Positions 3,695-62,800 of a stretch of DNA of 64,000 bases are shown here, one piece after another. Every line of letters begins with the position of its first letter. Position 1 is the stretch's first letter. The notes beneath the pieces are model-generated. The model had not been told where the DNA came from and did not search any database. It was given only the letters and a program-made list of their open reading frames with translations. The translations under genes and the position numbers were made by a program. The stretch is taken from assembly GCA_002842095.1 (NCBI GenBank), contig PHCB01000006.1, positions 206,044 to 270,043 of the forward strand, in the 5' to 3' direction. This DNA comes from a candidate division BRC1 bacterium HGW-BRC1-1 (lineage in GTDB: Bacteria; Sumerlaeota; Sumerlaeia; Sumerlaeales; Sumerlaeaceae).

Positions 3695-4713
3695 GCGGGG
3701 GCTTCTCCGGAAATCTGATTTGCGCCAGAGGAGTCCGTGTTGATGGTGACGGAGCGCGGAGCCACGTCGAGGATCTGAGAGGCGCGTAGGGCGATGTACA
3801 AGGTCAGCGCAAGAATGATCGCGCCCGTTACCACATGGGTGGTGGAAATCAGGATGTGGTGCATGGATGGCATTTGCGGTTCAAGCCGGGCGCGGTTGGC
3901 CCAGATGCTCCAGATGCCGAGGCTCACTTGCAGGATCAGCAGCAGGCCGGCGGCAGTGGAAAACCGGCGCAGCGGGGCGACGTCTTTGTATTCGCTCTGC
4001 ACCCGCGCAATCACCCAGCCGATGGCGACGACAACGAGAATGCCGCCGAGAATGTGCGACAACAGATGCCAGATGAAGGGTGCCTCGGGAATATCGCTGT
4101 GGCGCACACCGGCGCCCATGATCAACTGGAAGTAAACAATGGCCATCACGATTTTCGCGGTAAGCACCATCGAACGGTTGCCCGGGCGTTGGACGGAGAG
4201 GAGCGGAGTAGCATCGGATGAGGGCATCCAACTTCGACTGGTGAGCACCGCAATGGACAGCGTGAGGAGAAAAAACGCCTGGGCCAGACACGCGTGGACC
4301 ATGGAGACCCAAGGGGCGCGATAGGAATGGATGATCAGGCCACCGAACAGCGCCTGCGCCACCACGAGAACCACGGCCCACCAACCCAGCTTGCGCAGGA
4401 AGGGGCGCGACTCGCGCAACTGCATCCAGATGGCGAGGATGAGCGTCAACATGCCGGTGGTGGCGGCTATCACGCGGTGGGTGTCTTCATAGCGCAAACC
4501 GCCCACCCAGGTTTCGGCCTGGGGTATCCAGCTTCCGGCAAATTTCGGCCAGGTGGGGTCGCTGAGGGCGGCCTTGTTGCCCGTGATGAGCGCGCCCGCG
4601 CCGATGAGGATGAGCGTGAAAAGCGCGGTGAGCTTGGCAAAAGCCGCTAAACCGGGGTTGTACGAGAATGGCATCCGCAGACGCCGAGTCTTGGTGTTCG
4701 GAGAAGTTGCCAT
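3691..4713 (-). CDS. ctaA: Heme A synthase (CtaA/Cox15-like)
   Basis: Polytopic membrane protein with conserved His-containing helices (HACLAQAFF, HHILISTTHVVTG), immediately upstream of ctaB on the same strand. The automated ORF runs to 4896. I moved the start to the internal Met at 4713 (MATSPNTK...) because the upstream part covers an intergenic ATGGAC repeat. Confidence 0.7.
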   Translation of the reverse strand: MATSPNTKTRRLRMPFSYNPGLAAFAKLTALFTLILIGAGALITGNKAALSDPTWPKFAGSWIPQAETWVGGLRYEDTHRVIAATTGMLTLILAIWMQLRESRPFLRKLGWWAVVLVVAQALFGGLIIHSYRAPWVSMVHACLAQAFFLLTLSIAVLTSRSWMPSSDATPLLSVQRPGNRSMVLTAKIVMAIVYFQLIMGAGVRHSDIPEAPFIWHLLSHILGGILVVVAIGWVIARVQSEYKDVAPLRRFSTAAGLLLILQVSLGIWSIWANRARLEPQMPSMHHILISTTHVVTGAIILALTLYIALRASQILDVAPRSVTINTDSSGANQISGEAPA

Positions 4714-4825
4714 GGTTATGGGGGTCCGTGTGATGGTAAGTTCAGAAATTTGGAGACCTGTTGGGGACGGGTTTAGGTCGCGGAGGGTTTCAATGCAAGC
4801 AATAGGATTGTGGGTGGCGGGGGGG

Positions 4826-4870
4826 ATGGACAAAATGGACGAAATGGACTTTATGGACGATATGGACGGA
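4826..4870 (+). repeat. 9-bp periodic tandem repeat (ATGGAC-NNN)x5
   Basis: ATGGACaaaATGGACgaaATGGACtttATGGACgatATGGACgga, located between the SGNH hydrolase stop and the ctaA start. Confidence 0.85.
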
Positions 4871-8502: not shown

Positions 8503-9734
8503 AAGAGATTCAACTCAACAAGGCCCTTTACAACGAGAAGGGCGCCCGTCCGGCTGGCGGAGCCAAGGATGGCACTCCTGCGGGGCCGCCGGTGCGCGAG
8601 CCGCGCGGATCGCTTTTCGCCCGACTCGGCGCGTTGCTTGTGGACCTGCTGTTACTGCATGGCGCGGCGATGGTTGTCGTGAAACTCACGCCCTCGGCCG
8701 TGGTCAAACTCGGCCCGCCCTCCGCATGGGTTGGTTTGCTGGTGGGCCTGATCTATTTTGCCGTGGGATACGGCCCCTCCACGGGCGGGCGCACACTGGG
8801 CAAGATGGTCGTGCGGTTGCGCGTGGCGGATCTCACCGGCCCGCCCATGCCCGCCTCCAGGGCGGCGCTGCGGGCGGTGTTGTTTCTCGCCCCGGCGGCC
8901 ATGTATCTTGCTGCCACGCAGATTGATGAATTCCAGTTTCGCCCCGATGCGCTGGCGGTTTTTCCCTTTTATGGATTGCTGGGATTGGCCTTCATGATTT
9001 CGTGGATTCTGGGCAACGCACTGTTTGCCATGGCCGATCCCCATGGACGCAGTTGGATCGATCGCTTTTGCGGTGCGGTGATCGTAACCACCGACGCGCC
9101 TGTGGAGGCGCAGGGGACGTTTGTGCGCTCTGCGCGGGAGGATGCAGACCCGGTGCGGTTGCGCAAATCGCGCATGTATCTGGGCGGGACGGTTATCACG
9201 CTTCTTATACTGGCGGGCTTCTGGCTGCATCTGAACAAGAAGATGCTGACGGAAAGTCCCGAGCGCATGCGCGAGGTTTGGATGGCCCGCAACACGGCGT
9301 TTCACGTGGCCGGGTTCCTGCCCCCCTACAAGATTCAGGATGAAGCCCCCCGGCGCGATGGCAAGGCGACCTCATCCAACGACGGGCAAACGAGCGTGGT
9401 GGTGTACCAATACTACGCGCGGCACGGCCTCGATGCGGCAGAACTGAAAACTCGTGAAGATGTGAACAACGCCGTGGATCGCGTGGCGGGTTGGTTCACC
9501 GACACGTCGAAATTCCTGGCCGAAGAACAGGGCCGGGAGGCGGAAAAGGCGCGGGCCGAAGGGAAGCCGGTTCCGGCGTTTCAGCCGCTGACGAGCGAGA
9601 AGTTTCGCATCCGCACCAGCTTCGCCGAGTACGCCGATTTGTTCTGGGCGTCGAACGCCCACGAAGTGCTGAGCCTGGAACGCATGGTGGATTTATCGGA
9701 CACAGGGACGACGACGGCCGCCCTGGCAGAGTGA
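8499..9734 (+). CDS. RDD-family membrane protein with C-terminal soluble domain
   Basis: The N-terminal region has an Arg/Asp-flanked TM segment typical of the RDD family (FARLGALLVDLLLL...GGRTLGKMVVRLRV). The start overlaps the previous gene's stop. Confidence 0.55.
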   Translation: MKEIQLNKALYNEKGARPAGGAKDGTPAGPPVREPRGSLFARLGALLVDLLLLHGAAMVVVKLTPSAVVKLGPPSAWVGLLVGLIYFAVGYGPSTGGRTLGKMVVRLRVADLTGPPMPASRAALRAVLFLAPAAMYLAATQIDEFQFRPDALAVFPFYGLLGLAFMISWILGNALFAMADPHGRSWIDRFCGAVIVTTDAPVEAQGTFVRSAREDADPVRLRKSRMYLGGTVITLLILAGFWLHLNKKMLTESPERMREVWMARNTAFHVAGFLPPYKIQDEAPRRDGKATSSNDGQTSVVVYQYYARHGLDAAELKTREDVNNAVDRVAGWFTDTSKFLAEEQGREAEKARAEGKPVPAFQPLTSEKFRIRTSFAEYADLFWASNAHEVLSLERMVDLSDTGTTTAALAE

Positions 9735-9751
9735 TGGACGAAATGGACGTT
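9734..9751 (+). repeat. ATGGAC-NNN repeat (2 units)
   Basis: ATGGACgaaATGGACgtt lies immediately after the RDD gene stop, in a convergent intergenic region. Confidence 0.6.
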
Positions 9752-19855: not shown

Positions 19856-21706
19856 ATGGCTGACAAAGCGATCGGTGCGGGGCAGGCGTGGGGTATGGAC
19901 TCGAAAAGATTTGCCTGTACCCAGCGATGGGTTTTTGCGCTGCTGGCGGTTTGTTTATTGGCGGCACCGGCCCGGGCCGATGAAAGCTCCGAGGCTCCGG
20001 CCGATGGCGATACGACGAAAATTTTGCGGGCCGAGCGGGTCCGTTTTCAGAAACTGACGATGAAATCCGCAGCGGGCGGATATGTGGTCAGCCCCGGGCA
20101 GGAAGTGCGCATCACGTGGGATGACTACGAGGCGGCCATGGAACTGGGCGCCACGTCCGTGCCGTTGCGTGCGCGCTGGTTCGATGCTAAATTCCACGAG
20201 ACAACCGGCCCGCTGGCGCCGGGGCGGTGGGGAGTGCGCGTGGAAGGGTTGTCCCCCAACGGAATGCCGATGCGGCGGTCGCTCACGTTTTATGCCCGAC
20301 CGCCATTTTTTCTATGGTATTCGGCACCCAATGACTTTTCGTTTCCCCCACAACCGGGGCCGATTTCCAAAGAAGTGTGGAGCGAGAACCAGACCGAGAT
20401 CGACGCCCTCGGTCGCGACATGATGGCCGACGCCATCAACCGTTCGCCCTCCACGGCGATCATGTTGAGCGCGTGGGGCGAAACCAACCCGACTCCGGGC
20501 CGCGAGCCAACCTCGCTGGAGTCGGCTGTGGAACAGGATCATGCGTACCATCTCGCGCTGAAGTTGCATCTCACGGGGCGCGATGCCGATGCGCACGCAT
20601 TGCCTGCGCCGCGCCACTTGGAAAAGCCGGCCACGGTTCTGCACAAGGGAACCGCCGCCGAGGCCGGAATGAAACCCGACACCCGCCACCGCATGGACGA
20701 CCTCTGTCGCCGCTGGGCCGAGGCCACCGGCGAACCGTTCACCGTGCTGGTTGCGCGCCACGGCGTGGTGGTGCTGCACGGGGCGTACGGCAAAGGCGAG
20801 GATGGCAAACCGGTGGGGCTCGACTATCGGGGTGACATTGCATCGATTACGAAATCCATAACGGGGATTTTGTTTGCGCGTTTTCTCGATGACGGACGTG
20901 TGGATCTGGACGACAGCGTGGCCGGTGTGTTCGACGATTTTCCGCCCGGAGATCCCCATGTGCCCACGTTCCGCGATTGTTTCATGCACATGAGCGGGCT
21001 TGAGGGGCATGGGTCCCACGGAGGCGTCGGCAATCCTGATTTCGAAAACATTGTGCTGGGCGGTCTGGACACTCTCGCGCCGGGCACCAGCTACGCCTAC
21101 ACGGGTACAGGCTACGACCTGATGGGCAAGGCCATGGAGATTTGGTCGGGCAAAACCGCCAGGCGTTTGCTGGTGGAGGACCTGTTTCGCCCCCTGGGGC
21201 TGAGCGACATTCCCATGAACCAGATGGGCATGGGTGCGCGGCCCACGGTGTGGGAACTTGCCGTGTTCGGCCAGTTGCTGGCCAACGGCGGCAGTTATGG
21301 CAACGTGGAGTTGTTCGGGCGGGAAACGTTTGAAAAGATGCTGCCCCGCAGCTATGCGGAGATGTATCCCGGCGTGGACGTGAAGGGTGAGCAACCGTAT
21401 GGCTTGGGTCTGGGGTTGCGGGACGACCGGCGCAGAGTGCCGGAGGCCGTGGGGGCGGCGGATGTGGACACGACGATGACCGCCGAGCAGCGCCTGAAAG
21501 CAGCGGTGGACGCGGCGAAAAAAGGGGAACTGCTGTTCAGCGAGCGCACCATCGGCCACGGCGCGTTATCGCAGTCAATTTATCGCATCGACCTGGAAAC
21601 AGGTTTGGTTTTTACGATGATAAGACGTCAGGGCGGGAAAGACTTTGGCAAGTGGTGCCCGCAGTTTTTTGAGGCCGTGGCGGATTCGGTGGTTGGCGGG
21701 GAGTGA
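19856..21706 (+). CDS. Secreted serine hydrolase of the beta-lactamase / PBP fold with N-terminal extra domain
   Basis: A signal peptide is present, and the SxxK motif SITK appears in the C-terminal half. The stop abuts an ATGGGA 9-bp repeat. Confidence 0.6.
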
Positions 21707-21741
21707 TGGGAATGATGGGAAGAATGGGAGTGATGGGACAG
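21706..21741 (+). repeat. 9-bp periodic repeat, ATGGGA variant (4 units)
   Basis: ATGGGAatgATGGGAagaATGGGAgtgATGGGAcag, in a convergent intergenic region. Confidence 0.75.
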
Positions 21742-25306: not shown

Positions 25307-25370
25307 CGGGCACTACGCAAGGCGACGAAGGGGGTGCTGCGCAAGGGTATTCTCAGCGAGGGGGGTGGTG

Positions 25371-25432
25371 ATGGACGATATGGAAGGGATGGACACTATG
25401 GACGAAATGGACACTATGGACGGGATGGACAG
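25371..25432 (+). repeat. 9-bp periodic tandem repeat (ATGGAC-NNN)x7
   Basis: ATGGACgatATGGAAgggATGGACactATGGACgaaATGGACactATGGACgggATGGACagg, between oppC and truB. Confidence 0.9.
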
Positions 25433-25447
25433 GATTCGCGCCCCAAA

Positions 25448-32227: not shown

Positions 32228-32306
32228 GGGCGCGACCAGCAAACCCGACCGTGTTGCTGTCAGATTTGCTGATCGTCCATTTTGTCCATCCCCCCGTGCG
32301 CCGGGT

Positions 32307-35041
32307 TTACACCCGACGCAGAACCACGCATTTCAGATATTCCGACTCGGGGAAGCCCAACAGCACCGGGTGATCCGCCGGTTGGCCGCCACGAGCCACG
32401 ATCTGCATTCTCACACCGGCGTTGCGCGAGGCGCGTTCGAGCATTTCCTCGAACTCCCCGGGCATTACCTGTTGCGAGCATGAGCACGTGATGAGCACGC
32501 CACCGGGCGTTAACTTCTTCATGGCGTGGTAATTCAGGCTCAGATACGCCTTGAGCGCCTGGGGCACATGCACGCGCGATTTGGCGAAGGCCGGCGGGTC
32601 GCACACGATCACATCGAAGAAACCGTGCTGCGATTTTTTGTCGGCCATCCAATCGAAGGCATCGGCTTCTTCAAAGGTGACCACCGTTGCGTTATTGGCC
32701 TGGGCCGCCTGTCGCGCCATGGCAAGGGCCGTGGCTGACGAGTCGACTCCGATGACCTCGCGCGCGCCCCACTGGGCCGCGCACATGGCCCACCATCCAA
32801 CGTGGCAGAACATGTCCAGCACGCGTGCACCCTCACAGTACGGCTTCATGAATTTGCGGTTTTCGCGCTGGTCGAGATACAGGCCGGTCTTCTGGCCCTG
32901 GGCCGGATTGGTGAACAGCGTCACGCCGTCCACGTTTACCTGAAACTGCTCGGGCAGTTCGCCGCGCACGTGGGCTTCGCCGCGAATTTCCAGACCTTCG
33001 CGTCCACGCACATGACTGTCAGACCGCACCACCACGACGCTGTCCGGGAAATGCTTCTGCAGTTCCGCCACGCAACGCTCGCGCAGACGGTCGACCGCAA
33101 AGGTCAGAACCTGCACCACCAGCACGTTGCCGATTTTGTCGGCGATGAGTCCGGGCAGCCCGTCCGCATCGCTGAACACAACGCGGAACGAACCTTCCAC
33201 GAGGTCATAATGGACACGTCGCCGGTCCACTGCGGCTGCAATGGCCTTCTCGACGTAATCGCCATCGAAGCGCTCGGTGTTGGGTGAGAATATGCGCGCA
33301 CGAATCTTTGACTGGCCATTATAAATGGCGCTGCCAAGGAAACGGTCGTCGGCGTCGAACACATACACCGTGCCGCCGTCCTCGGTTTCACCCGCGACGG
33401 ACTTCACCATGTTGTCGAAAATCCACACGAGCCGGATGCGCTGCGTGCGGGTTTCTTCGCGCGTAACAACCATGCGAGGACGCGGGCCCACCGGACCGGT
33501 TGAAGGAGCTGAGGCAAAGGGGCGCGAAGCTGCGGGGGAATCCGTGGCAGTCTCTTCGCCATCGTCTTCGCCATCGTCTTCTCCACCTTCGTCGTCACCC
33601 GATTCTTCGTCTTCGTCGTCTTCATCCGAATCGGCAGCGTCGTCACCCTCTGCTTCTTCGTCTTCGAAATCTTCATCGAGATCCATCGAGCGGCTGTCGT
33701 CGAATACGACGTCATCGTCGTCCTCGTCAAAAGCTCCACCCATGGAGCCGATATCACCGTTTTCAATCTCGTCTTCCTGGGCGTCTTTTGCAGCCTGGAG
33801 AGCCGAGACTTCGTTGATCAGATTGACCGACGGCCGTGGTTTTGGCCGCAGCGGATCGCGATCTTTGGTCTCCGTATCACGGGAGCGATACCGTGGCACG
33901 GGATACTCGGTGTCGTCGCGCTCGGGCACAGTGGGTCGTGCCGGCGGACCAAACCTGCGATCGTCGCGCCCTTCGCCCCGCTGGTCGCCGTCTTCACGCT
34001 GGCCCCAGGGTTTGTAAACTTTGCCACCGCCACCACGGTCTTCGCGGGGTCGGTCGCCATACGGACGCGGCTTGTAACCGCCGCCACCGCCACTGCCACC
34101 ACGGGGAGGCCCGTCACCATAGGGACGCGGCTTATAGCCACCCTCTTCGCGGGGCCGGAAACCACCACCACCTTCGCGGGGTTTGTAGCCGCCTCCGCCT
34201 TCACGCGGTTTGAAACCACCACCCTCGCGGGGCTTGTCGCCATAGGGGCGCGGCTTGAAACCGCCACTGCGTGGGGGGCCGTCTCCGTAAGGGCGAGGTT
34301 TGTAACCGCCCTCCTCACGAGGACGATCGCCGTAGGGACGCGGCTTAAACCCGCCGCCGCTGCCACCTTCGCGCGGCTTGAATCCACCGCCACCGAATCC
34401 ACCTTCACGGGGCTTGAAACCACCTTCACGGGGTTTATAGCCACCGCCGCCCTCACGGGGACGATCGCCATACGGGCGTGGCTTGTAACCGCCACCGCCT
34501 CCGCCTTCGCGGGGTTTGTATCCACCACCACCTTCACGAGGCTTGTCACCATAAGGACGTGGCTTGTAACCGCCACCACCTCCACCTTCGCGCGGCTTGT
34601 AGCCACCGCCACCACCACCGGAATAGCCACCTTCGCGGGGCTTATAGCCGCCTCCACCCTCACGGGGCTTGAATCCACCTTCACGGGGACGATCGCCATA
34701 GGGACGTGGCTTGTAACCGCCACCGCCTGCGCCTTCACGTGGCTTGTAACCGCCCCCACCACCGCCAGAGTAGCCACCTTCGCGAGGCTTGTAGCCACCG
34801 CCGCCTTCACGGGGCTTGTACCCGCCACCGCCGCCGCCACCGGAGTAACCGCCTTCGCGGGGCTTGTCGCCATAGGGGCGCGGCTTATAGCCGCCCTCGC
34901 GGGGAGGACCACCTTCACGGCGCGCAGGAGGTCCGTCATCACGTCGCCAACCACCACCACCGCTCCCACCAAACTTGCCACCCGATTTTTTATCGGTGTC
35001 AGGGCGCCGCTTATCAAACTTATCGAACCGCTTCACTATTG
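32307..35041 (-). CDS. RlmI-type SAM-dependent rRNA (m5C) methyltransferase with very long Gly/Arg/Pro/Tyr-repeat and poly-acidic N-terminal extension
   Basis: The C-terminal ~400 aa show an RlmI-like PUA plus class-I methyltransferase fold (VGVDSSATAL, VIVCDPPAF). One continuous frame extends upstream through about 55 aa of Asp/Glu and about 480 aa of (GGYKPREGG/YKPRPYGDKPREGG)n. A GTG start with an AGGAG RBS lies near 35041. Confidence 0.6.
33990..34960 (-). repeat. Imperfect in-frame tandem repeats (~27-45 nt units) encoding GGYKPREGG / RPYGD(K/R)PREGG
   Basis: The repetitiveness leaves all frames open on both strands, which produced the phantom ORFs 33818..35017, 33325..34017 and 34478..35062. 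Confidence 0.8.
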
Positions 35042-37276
35042 GATCTCCTCGGGCGCCGTTGAAAATGAATCGTTGGGGGCAGGCTCGCGCTTCGCCTGAT
35101 AATTGCCCACATCCCATATGAATACAGGGGAAAAGCCAATGCGATATTGGAAATCGCGATTTTGATCGCCAACAGCACTCGTCGACAACGCACGCGCATT
35201 CTCTGGAGCGACCTCCGCGCCCAGCATATCTATAGCAGCCAAGGCTCCGGGGGGTGACGGCCGCAGTGAAATTAATTCCTCCTCACCCGGTTGGGATGTC
35301 CAAACAACATGGATTTTTCCCGGCACTTTGCTCGATTGGGGCAAAATTTGGAAGGTATTCACCGTTGCCCTGCCCTGCGTGGTGGTCTGGTCGGGAGCCA
35401 GTTGCAGCAGCAAAAACTGCAACAGATTGAACGCCACCGCAGCGGGTTTCGGGCGAAAAGCAGAATCAAGAAGTCCGCTGTGGGCGGACGCCTCTCCCTC
35501 CCAGGGCAGCCGCTCGCTGTCGCGAAGCTCGCTCCAGAAGGTCTTGTTCACCCCTCCCATCAGCGCGGTGGTGTAGCCCCGCACCAGCCAGTTGGCTTGC
35601 TCGGTCTCGTTCACGCCACCGGGCATGGTGCTCCACCCCAGCCCTGTCAGCCAGACTTCCTTGTCTTTTGTCCCACTGCGCAGGAGGATATCCTGTAACG
35701 CTGCGGTTTGCTCGGCCAGCTTCATTTGCGAGGGCAGCAACCGACCCGACGTTTGCGGGTCCAAACGCACGCTGACCACGTCGATCAACTGGGCCAAACC
35801 GTCAGCCAGCAGCGCCTCCATGAACTTCAGATCAAACCCCTCGGTGGAACCGGCCACCACACGGGGCCCCGCCGACACCCCCCGTACTTCCGCAGCGGTG
35901 GATTTCACCAGCTCGCGATATGCCTTCACGTCGGGCTTGGGGCTCCACCGCGTTGTGTTGGGGTTCACCCATATTTCGTATCCAAGAATTTTCATCGCAT
36001 AGCGTTCCACCATGCCGCGCACCCAACCGCGCCAGAGCAGCAAATCGCCGGGCGTTGTGGGCGCTTCACCCTGCTTGCTCCAGGCTGGCGGATGCGTGAT
36101 CGTGGTGATGAGGCGCAGATGTTCCGCGCGATAGGCATTCACCACGCGATCCATGCGATCCCAGTCGAAGATCAGCGGGGCCGTTTCCATACGATCCCAA
36201 TGGAAAGTCTCAATCGCCCAGAAGCCGCCCAACCGCCGATGCCAGCGCAGCATGCGGGTCGCATCGGCGATGGCCGCTTCATCCGTGGCCGACGCCATGT
36301 CGGCGCTCTTCACGCCAAACGGTGCGTTGTAGTTCAACGCCTCGCGGGGTGTGATGCTAAACGAAGAAAGCGATGAACGGTCGTGGGAAACAACCGTCGC
36401 CGTTGTGGGCAGACCCTCAAGGCGCACGAGGTAACCCATCACGCTGGTCGTGGTTACACCGTCGGGTTGCGGCTGAGTGGCTGCCTCGGGGAGCTGCGCG
36501 GCGGGATCGTTGCCAATGTACTCCTGCCGGTGGCCGGTCGCCTGGGGCAGTTCAGGCGCCGACTGCGCCGTGAACGTCACCTCGACGGACAGTTGTCCGG
36601 GTGTATGAAGGCGAATGGTGCGGTCGAATTCCGAAACGAAATCTTTAACATCCTGCGTTGTGGGGGTTGGACGCGCGATGGGCTTGATTGCCCGCACACT
36701 GTAATCCACGGCATTGGAAGCGAGTTCCGCCACCGAAAGATTGCGGGCCAACACGAGCGAGCCGCGACGATCGCGCACCTCCACGTGGGCACCACGGGGC
36801 ATGGTGCCTTCGCCAAAGAACCGCACATTACCCGTCAGCGGAAAACCGTTCATCACGACGAGTTGACCATCAAACCCGTCAAAAAAGAATGTGGTGCCCA
36901 GTCGGCCCTCGGATTTCACGGGCAGACGGATGGGCGAAACGGTGCGCCACTGGGGTTCGAAAATCTGAAGTTCAACTTCGTTCATGGTGCGTGCAAACAG
37001 GGTGGCCGTGGCGCGACCATCGCGCATCTGCAACTGGCGCGGCACCTCCAGCGAATCGGAGTCAGGCGTATAAACCCACAGCTCTCCAGTCAGCGCCACC
37101 GGCACGCTCGTTGCGGGGTCCACGGCTTGAAAAGTCACTTCGGCGTCGCGCTGCAAGGGCAGCCAGGCATCGCCTTTCACCACAACCACCGCTTCGCCGG
37201 ACGAAGCCACACCCTGCGCAGCCAACAGCATGACCGCCGCTGCCGCCATCATTCTCACACGCAACGCGAGACGCAT
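35036..37276 (-). CDS. Secreted large protein, probable TIM-barrel glycoside hydrolase
   Basis: A signal peptide MRLALRVRMMAAAAVMLLAAQGVASS is present. The central region resembles a GH catalytic barrel (ETFHWDRMETAPLIFDWDRMDRVVNAYRAEHLRLI..., ILGYEIWVNPN). The family was not resolved. Confidence 0.45.
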   Translation of the reverse strand: MRLALRVRMMAAAAVMLLAAQGVASSGEAVVVVKGDAWLPLQRDAEVTFQAVDPATSVPVALTGELWVYTPDSDSLEVPRQLQMRDGRATATLFARTMNEVELQIFEPQWRTVSPIRLPVKSEGRLGTTFFFDGFDGQLVVMNGFPLTGNVRFFGEGTMPRGAHVEVRDRRGSLVLARNLSVAELASNAVDYSVRAIKPIARPTPTTQDVKDFVSEFDRTIRLHTPGQLSVEVTFTAQSAPELPQATGHRQEYIGNDPAAQLPEAATQPQPDGVTTTSVMGYLVRLEGLPTTATVVSHDRSSLSSFSITPREALNYNAPFGVKSADMASATDEAAIADATRMLRWHRRLGGFWAIETFHWDRMETAPLIFDWDRMDRVVNAYRAEHLRLITTITHPPAWSKQGEAPTTPGDLLLWRGWVRGMVERYAMKILGYEIWVNPNTTRWSPKPDVKAYRELVKSTAAEVRGVSAGPRVVAGSTEGFDLKFMEALLADGLAQLIDVVSVRLDPQTSGRLLPSQMKLAEQTAALQDILLRSGTKDKEVWLTGLGWSTMPGGVNETEQANWLVRGYTTALMGGVNKTFWSELRDSERLPWEGEASAHSGLLDSAFRPKPAAVAFNLLQFLLLQLAPDQTTTQGRATVNTFQILPQSSKVPGKIHVVWTSQPGEEELISLRPSPPGALAAIDMLGAEVAPENARALSTSAVGDQNRDFQYRIGFSPVFIWDVGNYQAKREPAPNDSFSTAPEEIQ

Positions 37277-37921: not shown

Positions 37922-37966
37922 TTTGTCCATAGTGTCCATTACGTCCATTGAGTCCATACCGTCCAT
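37922..37966 (-). repeat. 9-bp periodic tandem repeat (ATGGAC-NNN)x5, reverse orientation
   Basis: GTCCATagtGTCCATtacGTCCATtgaGTCCATaccGTCCAT. Confidence 0.85.
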
Positions 37967-37976
37967 CGCTTCCCCC

Positions 37977-39869
37977 TTACTCCGCCATCCGCCGGGCCAT
38001 GGCAAAATGCTTATGCCACAGAGCCGTGTACAGCGGATCCGCAGGGTCCAGACTCGACAGTTGTACCTCCGGCGGACTCGAGTGTAGAAACCGTTTTCCG
38101 CCGATGCTGATTCCCGCGTGGAATACCTTGCCCGATGGATCCATGAAAAACAGCACGTCACCTGCTCGCAGGTCGGGCTGATGCCACGGGGTGGCCACCA
38201 ACTGCCCGCACAGCACCTGCTGGCGCGCATCGCGAGGCAGCGTCACGCCCGCAGCGGACCAGGCGGCACTCGTAATCCCCGAGCAATCAAGACCCAGTCG
38301 GCTCCGCCCACCATACACATACGGTGTGGTCAGAAACTCCGCCGCAACGAAGGCGGCCATCTTTCCCAGCCGTCCGGTGCCCACCAAAGACTTTGCCTGA
38401 TCCACGGCCAGCGCATCGATGTCGGGCAATGCTCCCGGTGGCAGGCGCAGGTTTGCGCCATCAACCATCAGCGGCAGGCGCGCGCCCGCTGGAATGCGCA
38501 GGTTACCCGCCCAGCCATCGCGCGGCACTGACGTCTTTTGCGCATTGAGCCAGCGATCGAATTCCGGCCCCGCCACCCGCGTGACCTGATCCGCTCGTAC
38601 CCAGCCGATGTAACCCTCGCCGCCCTGCACCAGCAGCGCGAAGCCGTCGTCGCTTTCGTCCAGCAACCACAGCGGCTCGCCCAGCAGAAGCTGCGACTGG
38701 ACACTGTCGCCCTGACGCGCAGAGGCCCACGTCATGGCCATCGGTACGCGCACGATGCCAAACCGTTTCTCCCCCAGCCGTGCCGAAGGCAACGTCTCCA
38801 TGCGGTTCACCACCGGATCGCAACCCACCGACAGCATTAATTCCTTGGTGGCGGAAGTGAGAAACGGGTGGCTGCTTTTGCCCGACAACACCCAACCCTC
38901 GTCGGTTTTATCGACCTGCGCATCGAGCAGGAAGAACACCGGTTCGGTGATTACGAAACGCTGGTAAACCTCGAGCATCTTCTGCACCTCAGCGGCGGTT
39001 TCCGCCGGGCGTGCAAGGGGCCACAGCGTGCGCGAGTAGGAGCGAATGCCGTCATGCAGCTTGGGCCACGCAGGGAGCTTGTCGCGAAAATCTCCGGTGG
39101 GAGCAACCGCGGGCGGTGCGGACGCTGCTGTCTCTGCTCCGGAATTATGATCCTTCCATCCGGCGACAATTGCTTCGTACAACGCGCGTGACTCCTCGCG
39201 ATGAAAACCCCGCGTTGCAAGGCGTTGGGCGTGTGTTGTCTCGTCTGCGGATCCGAACCACACGGTGGCATGAACGGGCGCCTTGCCGCTCACCGCCACT
39301 TGCACATCGAACCCCAGAGCCTTTGACAACATCCTCGCAGCCTCCGCCGCCAACCCTTCGTTGCTCTCGCCTTGCGCCATGGGCAAAGCCGTTTCGATTT
39401 CATCAGGCAGGTGGCGCACGGTCAGCACCAGATCCGGGTCCTGCTCGGCCACGCGTTTGCTCCGCTCGGACAATGGCTGCGGGGCTGCGTCCCACCGAGT
39501 GGTGGTGACCTTCGCACCGGCTGTCACGAGAGCATGATACAGATGTCCGGTCGTCAGCACGCTCGCGTCCGCTGCCAGAGTAGCCGTGGTCACCTTCGCA
39601 TCGGCTGTGGCTTCCTGTCCGCCCGCAGGATCCAGAAGAATAGTCAGCCCCGCCAACGGCTTGCCGTCTTTGGGCACGAACGGCAGCGCCGCGCCGGGAA
39701 TTTCCATCGGTGTGTAAAGCTCGGGAGACATCGTCAGATCATCGAAAGTGGGCGACGCGCCATTCTCCGCAGCCCCCGCATAAATCCCACTCACCGCCAT
39801 GCAGAGCACGACGCAGAATAGGCGGACGTTAGAAACAAACGGACTTTTGGCGGGGTTTTTCAGAGCCAT
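37977..39869 (-). CDS. NlpC/P60 (C40) cell-wall peptidase with large N-terminal domains
   Basis: The C-terminal motif GLDCSGITSAAW...FHAGISIG contains the Cys-His NlpC/P60 catalytic core. The start is at the Met preceded by a GGAAGGA RBS. Confidence 0.7.
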   Translation of the reverse strand: MALKNPAKSPFVSNVRLFCVVLCMAVSGIYAGAAENGASPTFDDLTMSPELYTPMEIPGAALPFVPKDGKPLAGLTILLDPAGGQEATADAKVTTATLAADASVLTTGHLYHALVTAGAKVTTTRWDAAPQPLSERSKRVAEQDPDLVLTVRHLPDEIETALPMAQGESNEGLAAEAARMLSKALGFDVQVAVSGKAPVHATVWFGSADETTHAQRLATRGFHREESRALYEAIVAGWKDHNSGAETAASAPPAVAPTGDFRDKLPAWPKLHDGIRSYSRTLWPLARPAETAAEVQKMLEVYQRFVITEPVFFLLDAQVDKTDEGWVLSGKSSHPFLTSATKELMLSVGCDPVVNRMETLPSARLGEKRFGIVRVPMAMTWASARQGDSVQSQLLLGEPLWLLDESDDGFALLVQGGEGYIGWVRADQVTRVAGPEFDRWLNAQKTSVPRDGWAGNLRIPAGARLPLMVDGANLRLPPGALPDIDALAVDQAKSLVGTGRLGKMAAFVAAEFLTTPYVYGGRSRLGLDCSGITSAAWSAAGVTLPRDARQQVLCGQLVATPWHQPDLRAGDVLFFMDPSGKVFHAGISIGGKRFLHSSPPEVQLSSLDPADPLYTALWHKHFAMARRMAE

Positions 39870-44887: not shown

Positions 44888-45117
44888 GGCATCCCTCCGG
44901 GATGCGGACGTTTAAGGCGTTGTGGTCCGGTGGTGTCGCTACGCTCAACCACCGGCTAAGAGCTGGCGCCCCCTCCAGGGGCTGAAAACAACCCCGCTGA
45001 AAAAACGGTTCAGCCTGTCCTCATAACACCGAGGTCATCCCGGAGGGAGACCAGCCATTAACCTATCTTGAGTTCATAACTCCGGGGTCATCCCGGAGGG
45101 ATGCCAGCTATTAGCCG
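44888..45117. repeat. Intergenic palindromic repeats (CATCCCGGAGGGA core, 3 copies; two ~42-bp direct repeats)
   Basis: GGCATCCCTCCGGGATGC is at 44888. Direct repeats TCATAACnCCGnGGTCATCCCGGAGGGAnnCCAGCnATTAnCC are at 45022-45063 and 45075-45116. Confidence 0.7.
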
Positions 45118-50182: not shown

Positions 50183-50218
50183 ATGGGATTTATGGGATGT
50201 CTGGGAGTTATGAATTTC
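50183..50218 (+). repeat. 9-bp periodic repeat, ATGGGA variant (4 units)
   Basis: ATGGGAtttATGGGAtgtCTGGGAgttATGAATttc, in the iscA/gspE divergent region. Confidence 0.65.
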
Positions 50219-61028: not shown

Positions 61029-61108
61029 GAGCAACCCAACAGGCAGGTAAGTTGAACCAGGGGCAGGCCGCCAAAGCCTGCCCTTTGCTATTTTCAGGGG
61101 GCGAGGGG

Positions 61109-61141
61109 ATGGACGATATGGACACTATGGACGTTATGGAA
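61109..61141 (+). repeat. ATGGAC-NNN repeat (4 units)
   Basis: ATGGACgatATGGACactATGGACgttATGGAA. Confidence 0.8.
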
Positions 61142-61286
61142 CGCCAATCTCCTGATTGGCACCCACAAGACACAAGGCGCAGGTGAGGCGGCTTCTCAGG
61201 CAGAGAAAGTCCGCTTTATTTTCTTCTCGGTGTCTTACCAGCGCTCCTCCTCGCCCGTTTAAAAGCGCCAATCAGGAGATTGGCGT
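61141..61286. repeat. MITE-like module: two 18-20 bp palindromes in inverted orientation flanking about 105 bp
   Basis: ACGCCAATCTCCTGATTGGC (61141-61160) and GCGCCAATCAGGAGATTGGCGT (61265-61286) are present. Each is itself a GCCAATC-N4-GATTGGC palindrome. Confidence 0.6.
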
Positions 61287-61408
61287 TCCCAGGAAAAAAA
61301 GCTTCCCCCAAACAAAGAAGCGGGGGCGCTTCAGCGCGGAGAACTCCGCCACCGATGCGCCCCCGCTAAGGGGTTTTATTTCAAACCAGGACTAAACCCG
61401 CGAAGGGA

Positions 61409-62482: not shown

Positions 62483-62755
62483 AATCTAAAACTCCTTGTT
62501 AAAATAATAACACATGGGAAATTTCACGCCGGACATCGATTGATAGTCCGGGTGATCTTTCCTGCAAATACAGTGGGCGATGCCGTGGAGATATTACAAG
62601 CATAAAATGAAGGCATATTGCTGATGGTTGAGAGAAATCACTGCGTCCAAAGACATGCCAGCCGCATAGACGCAAGCCGTTTGACAACAGATTTTTACGA
62701 ATTCGTAACAAAATAACCAAGCCGGGTTTTGGGAGGGGGATGAGGTGTGGGGGAG

Positions 62756-62800
62756 ATGGACGGGATGGACTTTATGGACGGTCTGGACACAATGGACACC
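62756..62800 (+). repeat. 9-bp periodic tandem repeat (ATGGAC-NNN)x5
   Basis: ATGGACgggATGGACtttATGGACggtCTGGACacaATGGACacc, in a divergent intergenic region. Confidence 0.85.

Follow-up and report, generated by a model that had tools for sequence, protein, structure and literature searches.

Dispersed intergenic arrays of a 9-bp-phased ATGGAC repeat in a Sumerlaeota genome and in other bacterial phyla

The spacer between oppC and truB in the candidate division BRC1 bacterium HGW-BRC1-1 (phylum Sumerlaeota) holds a short tandem array in which an ATGGAC hexamer alternates with a three-nucleotide (nt) spacer. We analysed this array together with the stretch of 64,000 nt around it (GenBank assembly GCA_002842095.1, contig PHCB01000006.1, positions 206,044 to 270,043), referred to here as the window. 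Units are written NNATGGACN, and a five-unit model array is written (ATGGACNNN)5. A preliminary description, made from the letters of the window, had listed eight such loci as a dispersed intergenic repeat family. All eight are present with the coordinates and strands then given, and a ninth was added (Table 1). The window total is nine arrays of 2-7 units each in a strict 9-bp register. No additional array occurs within 10 kb beyond either end, which gives nine arrays in 84 kb, or about one per 9 kb.

The arrays stand far above chance, the alternative that had been considered from the outset. In the window, 24 matches to ATGGACNNNATGGAC with at most one mismatch were found versus 0.18 expected, and none of 100 shuffled sequences reached 24. 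Tandem Repeats Finder reports a period of 9 or 18 at every one of the eight loci listed earlier, and the spacing between successive ATGGAC starts is 9 (18 times), 18 (twice) or 27 (once). When all hexamers are compared in the window, only ATGGAC and ATGGGA make arrays of three or more units at period 9, and no hexamer makes such arrays at periods 7, 8, 10, 11 or 12. All nine arrays fall in the non-coding 9% of the window (coding fraction 0.91; chance P ~4e-10). Their sole overlap with an open reading frame (ORF) concerns one of 87 aa that has no Pfam hit and is absent from the gene calls of a public contig covering the region.

Conservation within the unit is sharply uneven. Base counts over the 37 units of the window are A35, T37, G37, G37, A30/G7 and C28/A9 for the hexamer, so that ATGG is near-invariant (35-37 of 37 units per position). 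The following three positions are nearly free and at the same time poor in C (11 C in 111 positions, in a window with 61% GC), with a preference for G or A at position 7 and for T or A at position 9. Information content amounts to 1.0-2.2 bits at positions 1-6 and to 0.08-0.46 bits at positions 7-9. The ATGGGA variant is used at two loci, 21706 and 50183, in all units while the spacers all differ, so that a single hexamer variant runs through each array. Upstream of seven of the nine arrays, on the ATGGAC strand, lies a G-rich and nearly C-free head with a run of five to seven G. Loci 32275 and 4826 have 23 identical nt, comprising the head and the first units. Otherwise the window copies have nothing in common beyond the G-rich head and the hexamers, and no common consensus of an insertion sequence (IS) or a miniature inverted-repeat transposable element (MITE) underlies them.

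Spacer triplets were also considered as a possible record of copying. The set of triplets in use is not restricted beyond what base frequencies at each position would give, and a narrowed vocabulary as a sign of copying was not significant (p = 0.11-0.13). Arrays are accordingly not simple copies of each other, and the presence of intact hexamers beside randomised spacers argues for constraint on the hexamer and not for recent copying.

Table 1. Arrays and other features in the window. Arrays are referred to in the text by the number in the first column.
Feature	Position	Strand	Structure	Context
Array 4826	4810..4870	+	Head GTGGGTGGCGGGGGGG, then 5 units ATGGAC-(AAA,GAA,TTT,GAT,GGA)	GDSL lipase stop to ctaA start; both genes on the minus strand, array antisense to both
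Array 9734	9734..9751	+	2 units ATGGAC-(GAA,GTT)	Initial A doubles as the final base of the TGA of an RDD-domain gene; convergent with a Ser/Thr kinase gene
Array 21706	21688..21741	+	G-rich head, then 4 ATGGGA-variant units, spacers ATG,AGA,GTG,CAG	Overlaps the TGA of a beta-lactamase-family gene; convergent with an aldo/keto reductase gene
Array 25371 (focal)	25358..25433	+	Head GAGGGGGGTGGTG, then 7 units, one of them ATGGAA	14 nt from oppC stop, 51 nt (head edge) from truB start; genes on the minus strand, array antisense to both
Array 32275 (absent from the earlier list)	32275..32295 (units 32275-32289)	-	Head GGGGGG, then ATGGAC-(AAA,GAT)	17 nt past the stop of a PUA-methyltransferase gene
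Array 37922	37922..37983	-	Head GGAGTAAGGGGGAAGCG, then 5 units	Sense to an NlpC/P60 gene, 10 nt past its stop; terminator-like hairpin with T-rich tail downstream
Array 50183	50183..50209	+	3 ATGGGA/CTGGGA-variant units, no G-rich head; weakest member	Spacer of divergent IscA/GspE genes
Array 61109	61097..61144	+	Head GGGGGCGAGGGG, then 4 units, the last ATGGAA; abuts a 23-bp inverted repeat	Between intrinsic terminators of convergent ybeY and secreted-protein genes
Array 62756	62731..62800	+	Head GGGAGGGGGATGAGGTGTGGGGGAG, then 5 units, one of them CTGGAC	Divergent spacer of two secreted-protein genes of unknown function
Inverted repeat	61138-61160 / 61267-61289		Perfect, 23 bp, GGAACGCCAATCTCCTGATTGGC, encloses 106 nt; unique in the window	Starts within the last unit of array 61109
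RlmI-like gene	32307-35117	-	PUA + S-adenosylmethionine (SAM)-methyltransferase; ~370-aa N-terminal low-complexity region	
DNA tandem repeats	34035-34910		27-, 81- and 147-bp repeats	Encode the low-complexity region of the RlmI-like gene
Direct repeat	45021-45063 and 45074-45116		43 nt, 86% identity	Intergenic

Most arrays of the window lie at gene 3' ends or between terminators, and not in promoters. Relative to Pfam-supported neighbours, arrays 4826 and 25371 are antisense and 37922 is sense; four lie between convergent genes, and 50183 and 62756 between divergent ones. Array 61109, situated between two canonical hairpin-plus-T terminators, is probably outside both messenger RNAs. The start within 0-3 nt of a stop codon reported for several copies holds for two real genes, at 9734 and 21706, where the A of TGA is the first A of ATG, and does not extend beyond these. 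Similarly, Pfam supports the flanking genes ctaA, truB/oppC, IscA/GspE and YbeY that had been named, while copZ was not found. Because orientation to the flanking genes is random and these genes are unrelated, a role in regulating particular genes, as was suggested at first, is unlikely.

Some features in the vicinity are repetitive in their own right. The low-complexity region of the RlmI-like methyltransferase is made up of (GGYKPREGG) and (YKPRPYGDKPREGG) peptide repeats, and Arg/Gly/Tyr-rich tails of this kind are often associated with RNA binding. A 431-bp dispersed repeat with 92.6% identity is found close by, beyond the left end of the window (10 kb left; L470 2421-2851 and 5872-6302).

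The same hexamer arrays turn up in many phyla, so the element is not specific to this genome as had been supposed. A cross-phylum scan for four perfect units, with one genome per species, gave at least 117 loci. Among the matches listed, carriers are mainly Verrucomicrobiota (Akkermansia, Prosthecobacter, Chthoniobacter, Spartobacteria), Lentisphaerota (Oligosphaera, Victivallis), environmental Chlamydiota and Planctomycetota, with Hydrogenedentota, Cloacimonadota, Chlorobi, Sumerlaeota, Armatimonadota and some Desulfobacterota, Nitrospirota and Acidobacteriota also prominent. Genome GC at the carrier loci ranges from 34 to 72% and the hexamer core is identical. Many genomes contribute several loci each. 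Heterogeneous spacers characterize 132 of the 159 arrays, in which 63 of the 64 possible spacer triplets are seen. A minority of the arrays, in Actinobacteria, Paenibacillus and similar organisms, represent genuine coding repeats, a separate thing; coding (MDX)n or Gly-X-Y repeats of this DNA pattern also occur on viral contigs.

Raw pattern counts prove nothing about ATGGAC, because coding repeats, in which 9 nt equal three codons, give the same pattern. On viral contigs, hexamers unrelated to ATGGAC gave at least 120 matches each with a period of 9 nt, versus 81 for ATGGAC. A control within the array loci (843 kb) does set ATGGAC apart: there ATGGAC and its phase shifts alone form 9-bp arrays with heterogeneous spacers (123 in 96 loci), while unrelated hexamers form at most three such arrays each. 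Arrays are rare on viral contigs, and a BLAST search of plasmids with a synthetic array gave no match, possibly through low-complexity masking.

Heads and paired arrangements recur in this larger sample. Across phyla, GGGG is found within 30 nt upstream in 36 of 150 arrays, as compared with CCCC in 4 of 150. A partner array within 60 nt is convergent for 31 arrays and divergent for 10. Spacers common to both arms gave a mixed picture, being observed in 8 of the 18 testable inverted pairs, and indicate that inverted duplication is one way in which arrays spread. Direct, convergent and divergent array arrangements are thus all present, as in known operator and centromere iterons. In relation to genes, 32 arrays are antisense, 25 sense, 18 convergent and 11 divergent, and these counts fit the background mix of intergenic regions (416 co-directional, 108 convergent, 106 divergent).

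Signals of replication polarity, of the kind shown by Chi or by FtsK-orienting polar sequences (KOPS), are weak. The array strand is locally slightly G-rich (43 of 70 loci, p = 0.008), neighbouring arrays have the same orientation in 17 cases versus 8 (p = 0.11), and third-codon-position skew in the window tracks the coding strand and not the replichore.

Individual lineages add sequences of their own around the arrays. In metagenome-assembled genomes (MAGs) of Lentisphaerae (L018 1569-1609, L020, L110, L112, L114), arrays at otherwise unrelated sites are directly abutted by a conserved ~40-nt head, AACCGGTCACYCGTTGATAATTGTTGTTCCCGCAAGCTGCT; within it, a sigma-70-like TTGATA-18 nt-TGCTAT is directed into the array. 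A Chlamydiae MAG carries two paralogous palindromic elements of ~150 bp, 2.3 kb apart (L017 3300-3520 and 5630-5850), each running from a forward ATGGAC array through a loop of 9 nt to an array in inverted orientation. Inverted outer flanks, CGTCAACTTAAGG / CCTTAAGTTGACG, give the first element a MITE-like shape. Very long arrays of at least 34 units, nearly all with one spacer, were detected in Chlorobiaceae (L006 1635-1940, L037). Arrays at contig ends (L014, L041, L065, L096) suggest that short-read assemblies break there.

Comparison of related genomes points to rapid turnover. Assemblies of the source strain from different samples have identical arrays. As these assemblies are at least 99.9% identical overall, this identity is uninformative on hypervariability, and the slipped-strand or phase-variable behaviour proposed in the preliminary description finds no direct support in arrays that do not vary among these assemblies and mostly lie outside promoters. 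In a relative whose TruB is 94% identical, the oppC-truB spacer is without an array; the truB-proximal half of the spacer is conserved, and the array-bearing half is replaced by unrelated sequence. Another relative, whose RDD protein is 89% identical, ends this gene in TAA and lacks an array there. Some 100 kb of sequence representing five or more further Sumerlaeota genomes gave zero arrays versus ~11 expected. Gain and loss of arrays are rapid in evolutionary terms. Patchiness at such a shallow depth, combined with an unchanged core in distant phyla, is an argument that whatever produces or needs the arrays was acquired horizontally. A further pair of loci (L124 ~4375-4765 and L125) encodes identical TruB and differs by an insertion of ~390 bp upstream of truB, bounded by a 9-bp direct repeat, GCCCGCCTG, and with decayed 9-bp-phased GTCC units inside.

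The pattern of conservation allows the secure inference that ATGG(A/G)(C/A) is recognised by some factor at a phase of 9 nt. The reading that we prefer, with a probability of roughly 40%, is that each array serves as a platform of phased sites to which a sequence-specific protein binds and on which it oligomerises, the substrate most likely being duplex DNA. A putative protein-binding module was among the roles proposed in the preliminary description, and it is the best reading here as well. A trans-acting protein would recognize ATGG(A/G)(C/A) once per 9 positions and ignore the next three bases, and as a small dimer or oligomer it would polymerise cooperatively head-to-tail along the array. 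Successive sites would be rotated by ~309 degrees, and seven units (63 bp) would correspond to six helical turns. Arrays may grow by slippage or by local, sometimes inverted, duplication, after which spacers would drift and hexamers would be kept. The complexes would then act as generic chromosomal landmarks, in nucleoid organisation, insulation or anchoring, and not as regulators of particular genes. Orientation independence, the occurrence of both direct and inverted arrangements, the lack of RNA structure and the site between two terminators favour duplex DNA as the form that is read.

Precedents for such a platform exist on plasmids. Among the centromeres and operators of type Ib/II, those with omega heptads, MetJ metboxes and ParR iterons are related to the case of pCXC100. 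There, nine unspaced, non-palindromic 9-bp repeats with the consensus AGNTGGAAA are bound cooperatively by a ribbon-helix-helix ParB, one dimer per 9 bp, and the footprint recurs every 9.07 +/- 0.08 bp (PMC3074162). This consensus and the unit described here have TGGA at the same position, few positions are conserved in both, and copy number is alike (up to 9 in pCXC100, 2-7 in the window arrays). The pCXC100 centromere differs in being one plasmid locus beside parAB, whereas the window arrays occupy many chromosomal loci with no flanking par genes. KfrA of plasmid RA3 is an oligomerising DNA-binding protein whose site consists of five contiguous 9-bp repeats, direct and inverted (PMC7783346); its operator has another sequence, TGTATTGTA, and is a single autoregulatory site overlapping one promoter. 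In the terms used for plasmid iterons, the arrays do consist of contiguous repeats within 7-11 bp, direct or inverted, with a strict period of 9 bp, but they are not one locus beside the gene for the binder: the nine loci in 84 kb lie next to unrelated genes, none of which is par-like.

Dispersed heptamers are the other near analogues besides plasmid iteron arrays. The cyanobacterial short tandemly repeated repetitive (STRR) heptamers are comparable dispersed short repeats. Direct repeats of the heptamer TAACTGA are known from Beggiatoaceae, cyanobacteria and Bacteroidetes (PMC4679880). They resemble the present arrays in being intergenic, in having 2-6 copies per set, at times many more, with numerous sets in a genome, and in lacking a functional pattern among neighbouring genes; both are patchy across phyla, suggesting horizontal spread. 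In contrast, TAACTGA units are 7 nt long, fully conserved and found mostly a short way upstream of start codons, with a single orientation, while the unit studied here has 9 nt with three free positions and no preference for orientation or start codons. The arrays are thus the same general kind of element as STRR and TAACTGA repeats, with a different sequence, and do not belong to either family.

Several points weigh against a duplex-DNA platform read by a host protein. No candidate binding protein turned up, and no protein family is enriched, whether the ORFs next to arrays or the full set of 706 ORFs from the array loci are clustered. The cross-phylum orientation counts rest on heuristic gene calls. 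Known 9-bp iterons are single loci beside par or kfr genes, while the window arrays lie about one per 9 kb beside unrelated genes. The strand-asymmetric composition, with 10% C in spacers and the excess of GGGG over CCCC upstream, is more natural for a feature read as a single strand, be it RNA or single-stranded DNA. Finally, a host DNA-binding protein alone leaves unexplained why hundreds of arrays would be present in one lineage and absent in close relatives, and some spreading mechanism seems needed beyond it. A broader proposal, tentative and in our opinion only possible, is that the arrays form an undescribed class of prokaryotic interspersed repeats in more than 10 phyla, installed and read by a horizontally transferable protein with one protomer per 9 nt. 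The layout of a head followed by 6-bp repeats and 3-bp spacers may reflect an active array-building mechanism. Descriptions of ATGGAC or GTCCAT arrays were not found in Rfam or in the searchable literature. In the term counts available for an AYGGAY-rich preprint (10.64898/2026.09.22.753630), which point to the TwoAYGGAY motif, ATGGAC and CsrA each score 0.

In a selfish or mobile alternative, the hexamers would be binding or target sites of a horizontally transferred enzyme, similar to a transposase, a recombinase or a REP-associated tyrosine transposase (RAYT; REP, repetitive extragenic palindromic), that installs and expands arrays with at most an incidental effect on the host. One possible route would be a 6-bp target duplication together with a 3-bp footprint in each cycle. 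We regard this as unlikely though a live rival; it explains the patchiness within Sumerlaeota, the insertion polymorphism at two orthologous sites (flanking proteins 89-94% identical) and the lineage-specific heads and tails, such as the Lentisphaerae head and the Chlamydiae inverted flanks, that abut arrays at unrelated sites. A core that stays identical across phyla of such different GC content, the spacers common to both arms of inverted pairs and the identical 23-nt head with first units at two window loci are also on its side, and the layout of the arrays resembles a leader plus repeat-spacer array. It is opposed by the finding that neither a transposase nor any other enzyme family is enriched near arrays, by the lack of terminal inverted repeats and target duplications in the window, and by the rarity of arrays on viral contigs and their absence among plasmid matches. 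The series of spacers, moreover, differ between loci, so the arrays are not copies, and intact hexamers need either constraint in situ or very fast turnover. The reading lacks an enzyme, and intact hexamers beside random spacers are hard to explain in this way.

Equally unlikely, and equally a live rival, is a role of the arrays as RNA, in which unstructured rows of AUGGAC would be offered to a single-strand binder, titrating a protein or marking transcripts. The binder could be a dimer of the CsrA/RsmA type or a factor that reads TwoAYGGAY loops. The core site of CsrA is A(N)GGA, and TwoAYGGAY loops carry AYGGAY; AUGGA fits the former and AUGGAC the latter. Strand asymmetry, including the G-rich heads enriched upstream, would be accounted for, as would this resemblance. 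The G-rich, C-poor array strand folds no better than shuffled sequences (z -1.8 to +0.6), so its sites stay single-stranded; with both strands included, z-scores extend from -1.8 to +1.6, shuffled sequences folding better than the GUCCAU strand. Several arrays are in 3' untranslated regions directly past stop codons, and the sigma-70-like sequence in the Lentisphaerae head reads into the array. CsrA is itself patchy, being present in ~30% of genomes and common in Planctomycetota (PMC13443453).

Random orientation is what RNA does not explain: sense and antisense arrays both occur, in the window and across phyla (25 versus 32), and array 61109 lies between two terminators. The A, T and C around GGA are invariant, and the requirement of CsrA is looser than that. 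No CsrA is encoded in the fetched array loci, where tblastn with CsrA, Hfq and MraZ found nothing. The TwoAYGGAY RNA (RF01731) and the CsrB/RsmZ small RNAs (sRNAs) are alike in having repeated sites with the A(N)GGA core, and AUGGAC conforms to AYGGAY; in these RNAs, however, the motif sits in the loops of hairpins that belong to a defined sRNA, one that has a promoter and a terminator to itself, and hairpins presenting GGA are lacking in the window arrays. Considered as a CsrA sponge, an array has the GGA motifs, without a match to an sRNA family, a consistent orientation or a csrA gene in the fetched loci.

Searches of Rfam gave no match at the gathering threshold in the window, TwoAYGGAY included, and the focal array had no relevant match at E <= 10; with folding no better than shuffled, a structured RNA or known RNA family was rejected for the window arrays. 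In 20 other array loci Rfam found only tRNAs and Acido-Lenti-1 copies, not consistently linked to arrays. Oligosphaera ethanolica has three equal-scoring Acido-Lenti-1 copies within 8 kb (L030 1270-1334, 5572-5636 and 6224-6288), one of which is 46 nt from a 7-unit ATGGAC array and two of which are not beside arrays. One copy of the 43-nt direct repeat in the window has a sub-threshold match to the same RNA (20.5 bits, with a cut-off of 37). As to transcription-related functions, a general role as terminator was rejected because the genes flanking array 61109 have canonical terminators of their own and orientation is random. A Rho-utilisation site on the C-rich strand would fit in composition, but the bias amounts to just 32 versus 25 and no invariant hexamer is needed for it.

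Structural explanations that do without a protein reader, namely two-tetrad G-quadruplexes (GG-N7)n or R-loops, a microsatellite, or a DnaA-titrating cluster of 9-mers, have very little probability. GG does recur every 9 nt beside runs of G5-7, and the ATGGGA array at 21706 fits (G3+N6)4, but in a quadruplex the loops do not require A, T or C to be conserved, whereas A1 is kept in 35, T2 in 37 and C6 in 28 of the 37 units, and in a microsatellite conservation would be equal at all nine positions. The general DnaA box is the 9-mer TTWTNCACA, with conserved CACA positions, and the actinobacterial box is TTGTCCACA. Units are 9-mers like DnaA boxes, and GTCCA matches the core of the actinobacterial box. 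The hexamer nevertheless departs from the box at the critical CACA, and DnaA is universal while arrays are patchy. In terms of the box consensus, the reverse-strand unit NNGTCCATN mismatches position 8 and leaves position 9 free, and a DnaA-box cluster was rejected.

Translation, whether as (Met-Asp-X)n mini-ORFs behind a Shine-Dalgarno-like head, the reading mentioned initially, or as Gly-X-Y in the open frame GGA-CNN-NAT, has next to no chance, since stop triplets occur in the ATG frame of the 159 arrays practically at the expected rate (4.0% versus 4.7%; arrays such as ATGGACTGAATGGACTGA exist) and the sole frame that can never hold a stop needs rare codons. That frame would demand GGA (or GGG) and NAT in nearly all 37 units, with its near-invariant T and A on synonymous third positions, whereas in the 12 Pfam-supported window genes GGA makes up 15% of Gly codons and NAT 33% of NAY codons (GGC 56% and NAC 67%). 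All frames were therefore rejected. A G-run followed by ATG does resemble a ribosome-binding site with a start codon, and public gene callers place ORFs of 55-56 aa starting on the ATG of two arrays (L470 14627-14794 and L472 9696-9866, corresponding to arrays 4826 and 62756). Such would-be ORFs run antisense into Pfam-supported genes and their downstream peptides are unrelated between loci; they are probably false genes prompted by the G-run and ATG.

Established classes of prokaryotic repeats do not accommodate the arrays either, and the view of a real, dispersed family beside unrelated genes that is neither REP nor CRISPR has held. REP sequences and bacterial interspersed mosaic elements (BIMEs) are alike in being intergenic, often at gene 3' ends, in forming mosaics of alternating orientation and in having a short tag across phyla, but REPs are imperfect palindromes of 20-40 bp that fold into hairpins (PMC3733652), and the window arrays have neither dyad symmetry nor predicted structure. 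At the density observed, hundreds of arrays per genome would be expected, an abundance similar to that of REPs. The REP/BIME assignment was rejected on the grounds of head-to-tail direct repeats, the lack of a GTAG/CGTC tag and the lack of a recurrent gene family among the 706 ORFs; no RAYT-like gene was seen. For CRISPR, the repeat of 6 bp and spacer of 3 bp are to be compared with ~23-55 and ~21-72 bp, and Pfam revealed no cas genes beside the window arrays. Window copies are not MITEs, having no terminal inverted repeats or target duplication, although some other lineages show inverted flanks or conserved heads. An ordinary microsatellite or variable-number tandem repeat was dismissed because positions are unequally conserved and copy number does not differ among assemblies at least 99.9% identical. 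No link in sequence or genomic position was found to the DRT10 reverse transcriptase, which makes complementary DNA of 9-nt tandem repeats.

The arrays have practical consequences for genome data, in which they mislead gene callers into false genes of 55-56 aa in public assemblies and can break short-read assemblies. Concerning the phased protein-binding platform preferred here, the patchy distribution means that the reader protein should be findable by phyletic profiling, and the idea is directly testable because carriers are in culture (Oligosphaera ethanolica DSM 24202, and Victivallis vadensis and Chlorobaculum at the level of species or genus). If one protein reads the arrays, the two would together define a new system of protein and nucleic acid that spans the chromosome and occurs in many poorly studied phyla, among them Sumerlaeota, Verrucomicrobiota (with Akkermansia), Lentisphaerota, environmental Chlamydiota, Planctomycetota, Hydrogenedentota, Cloacimonadota and Chlorobi.

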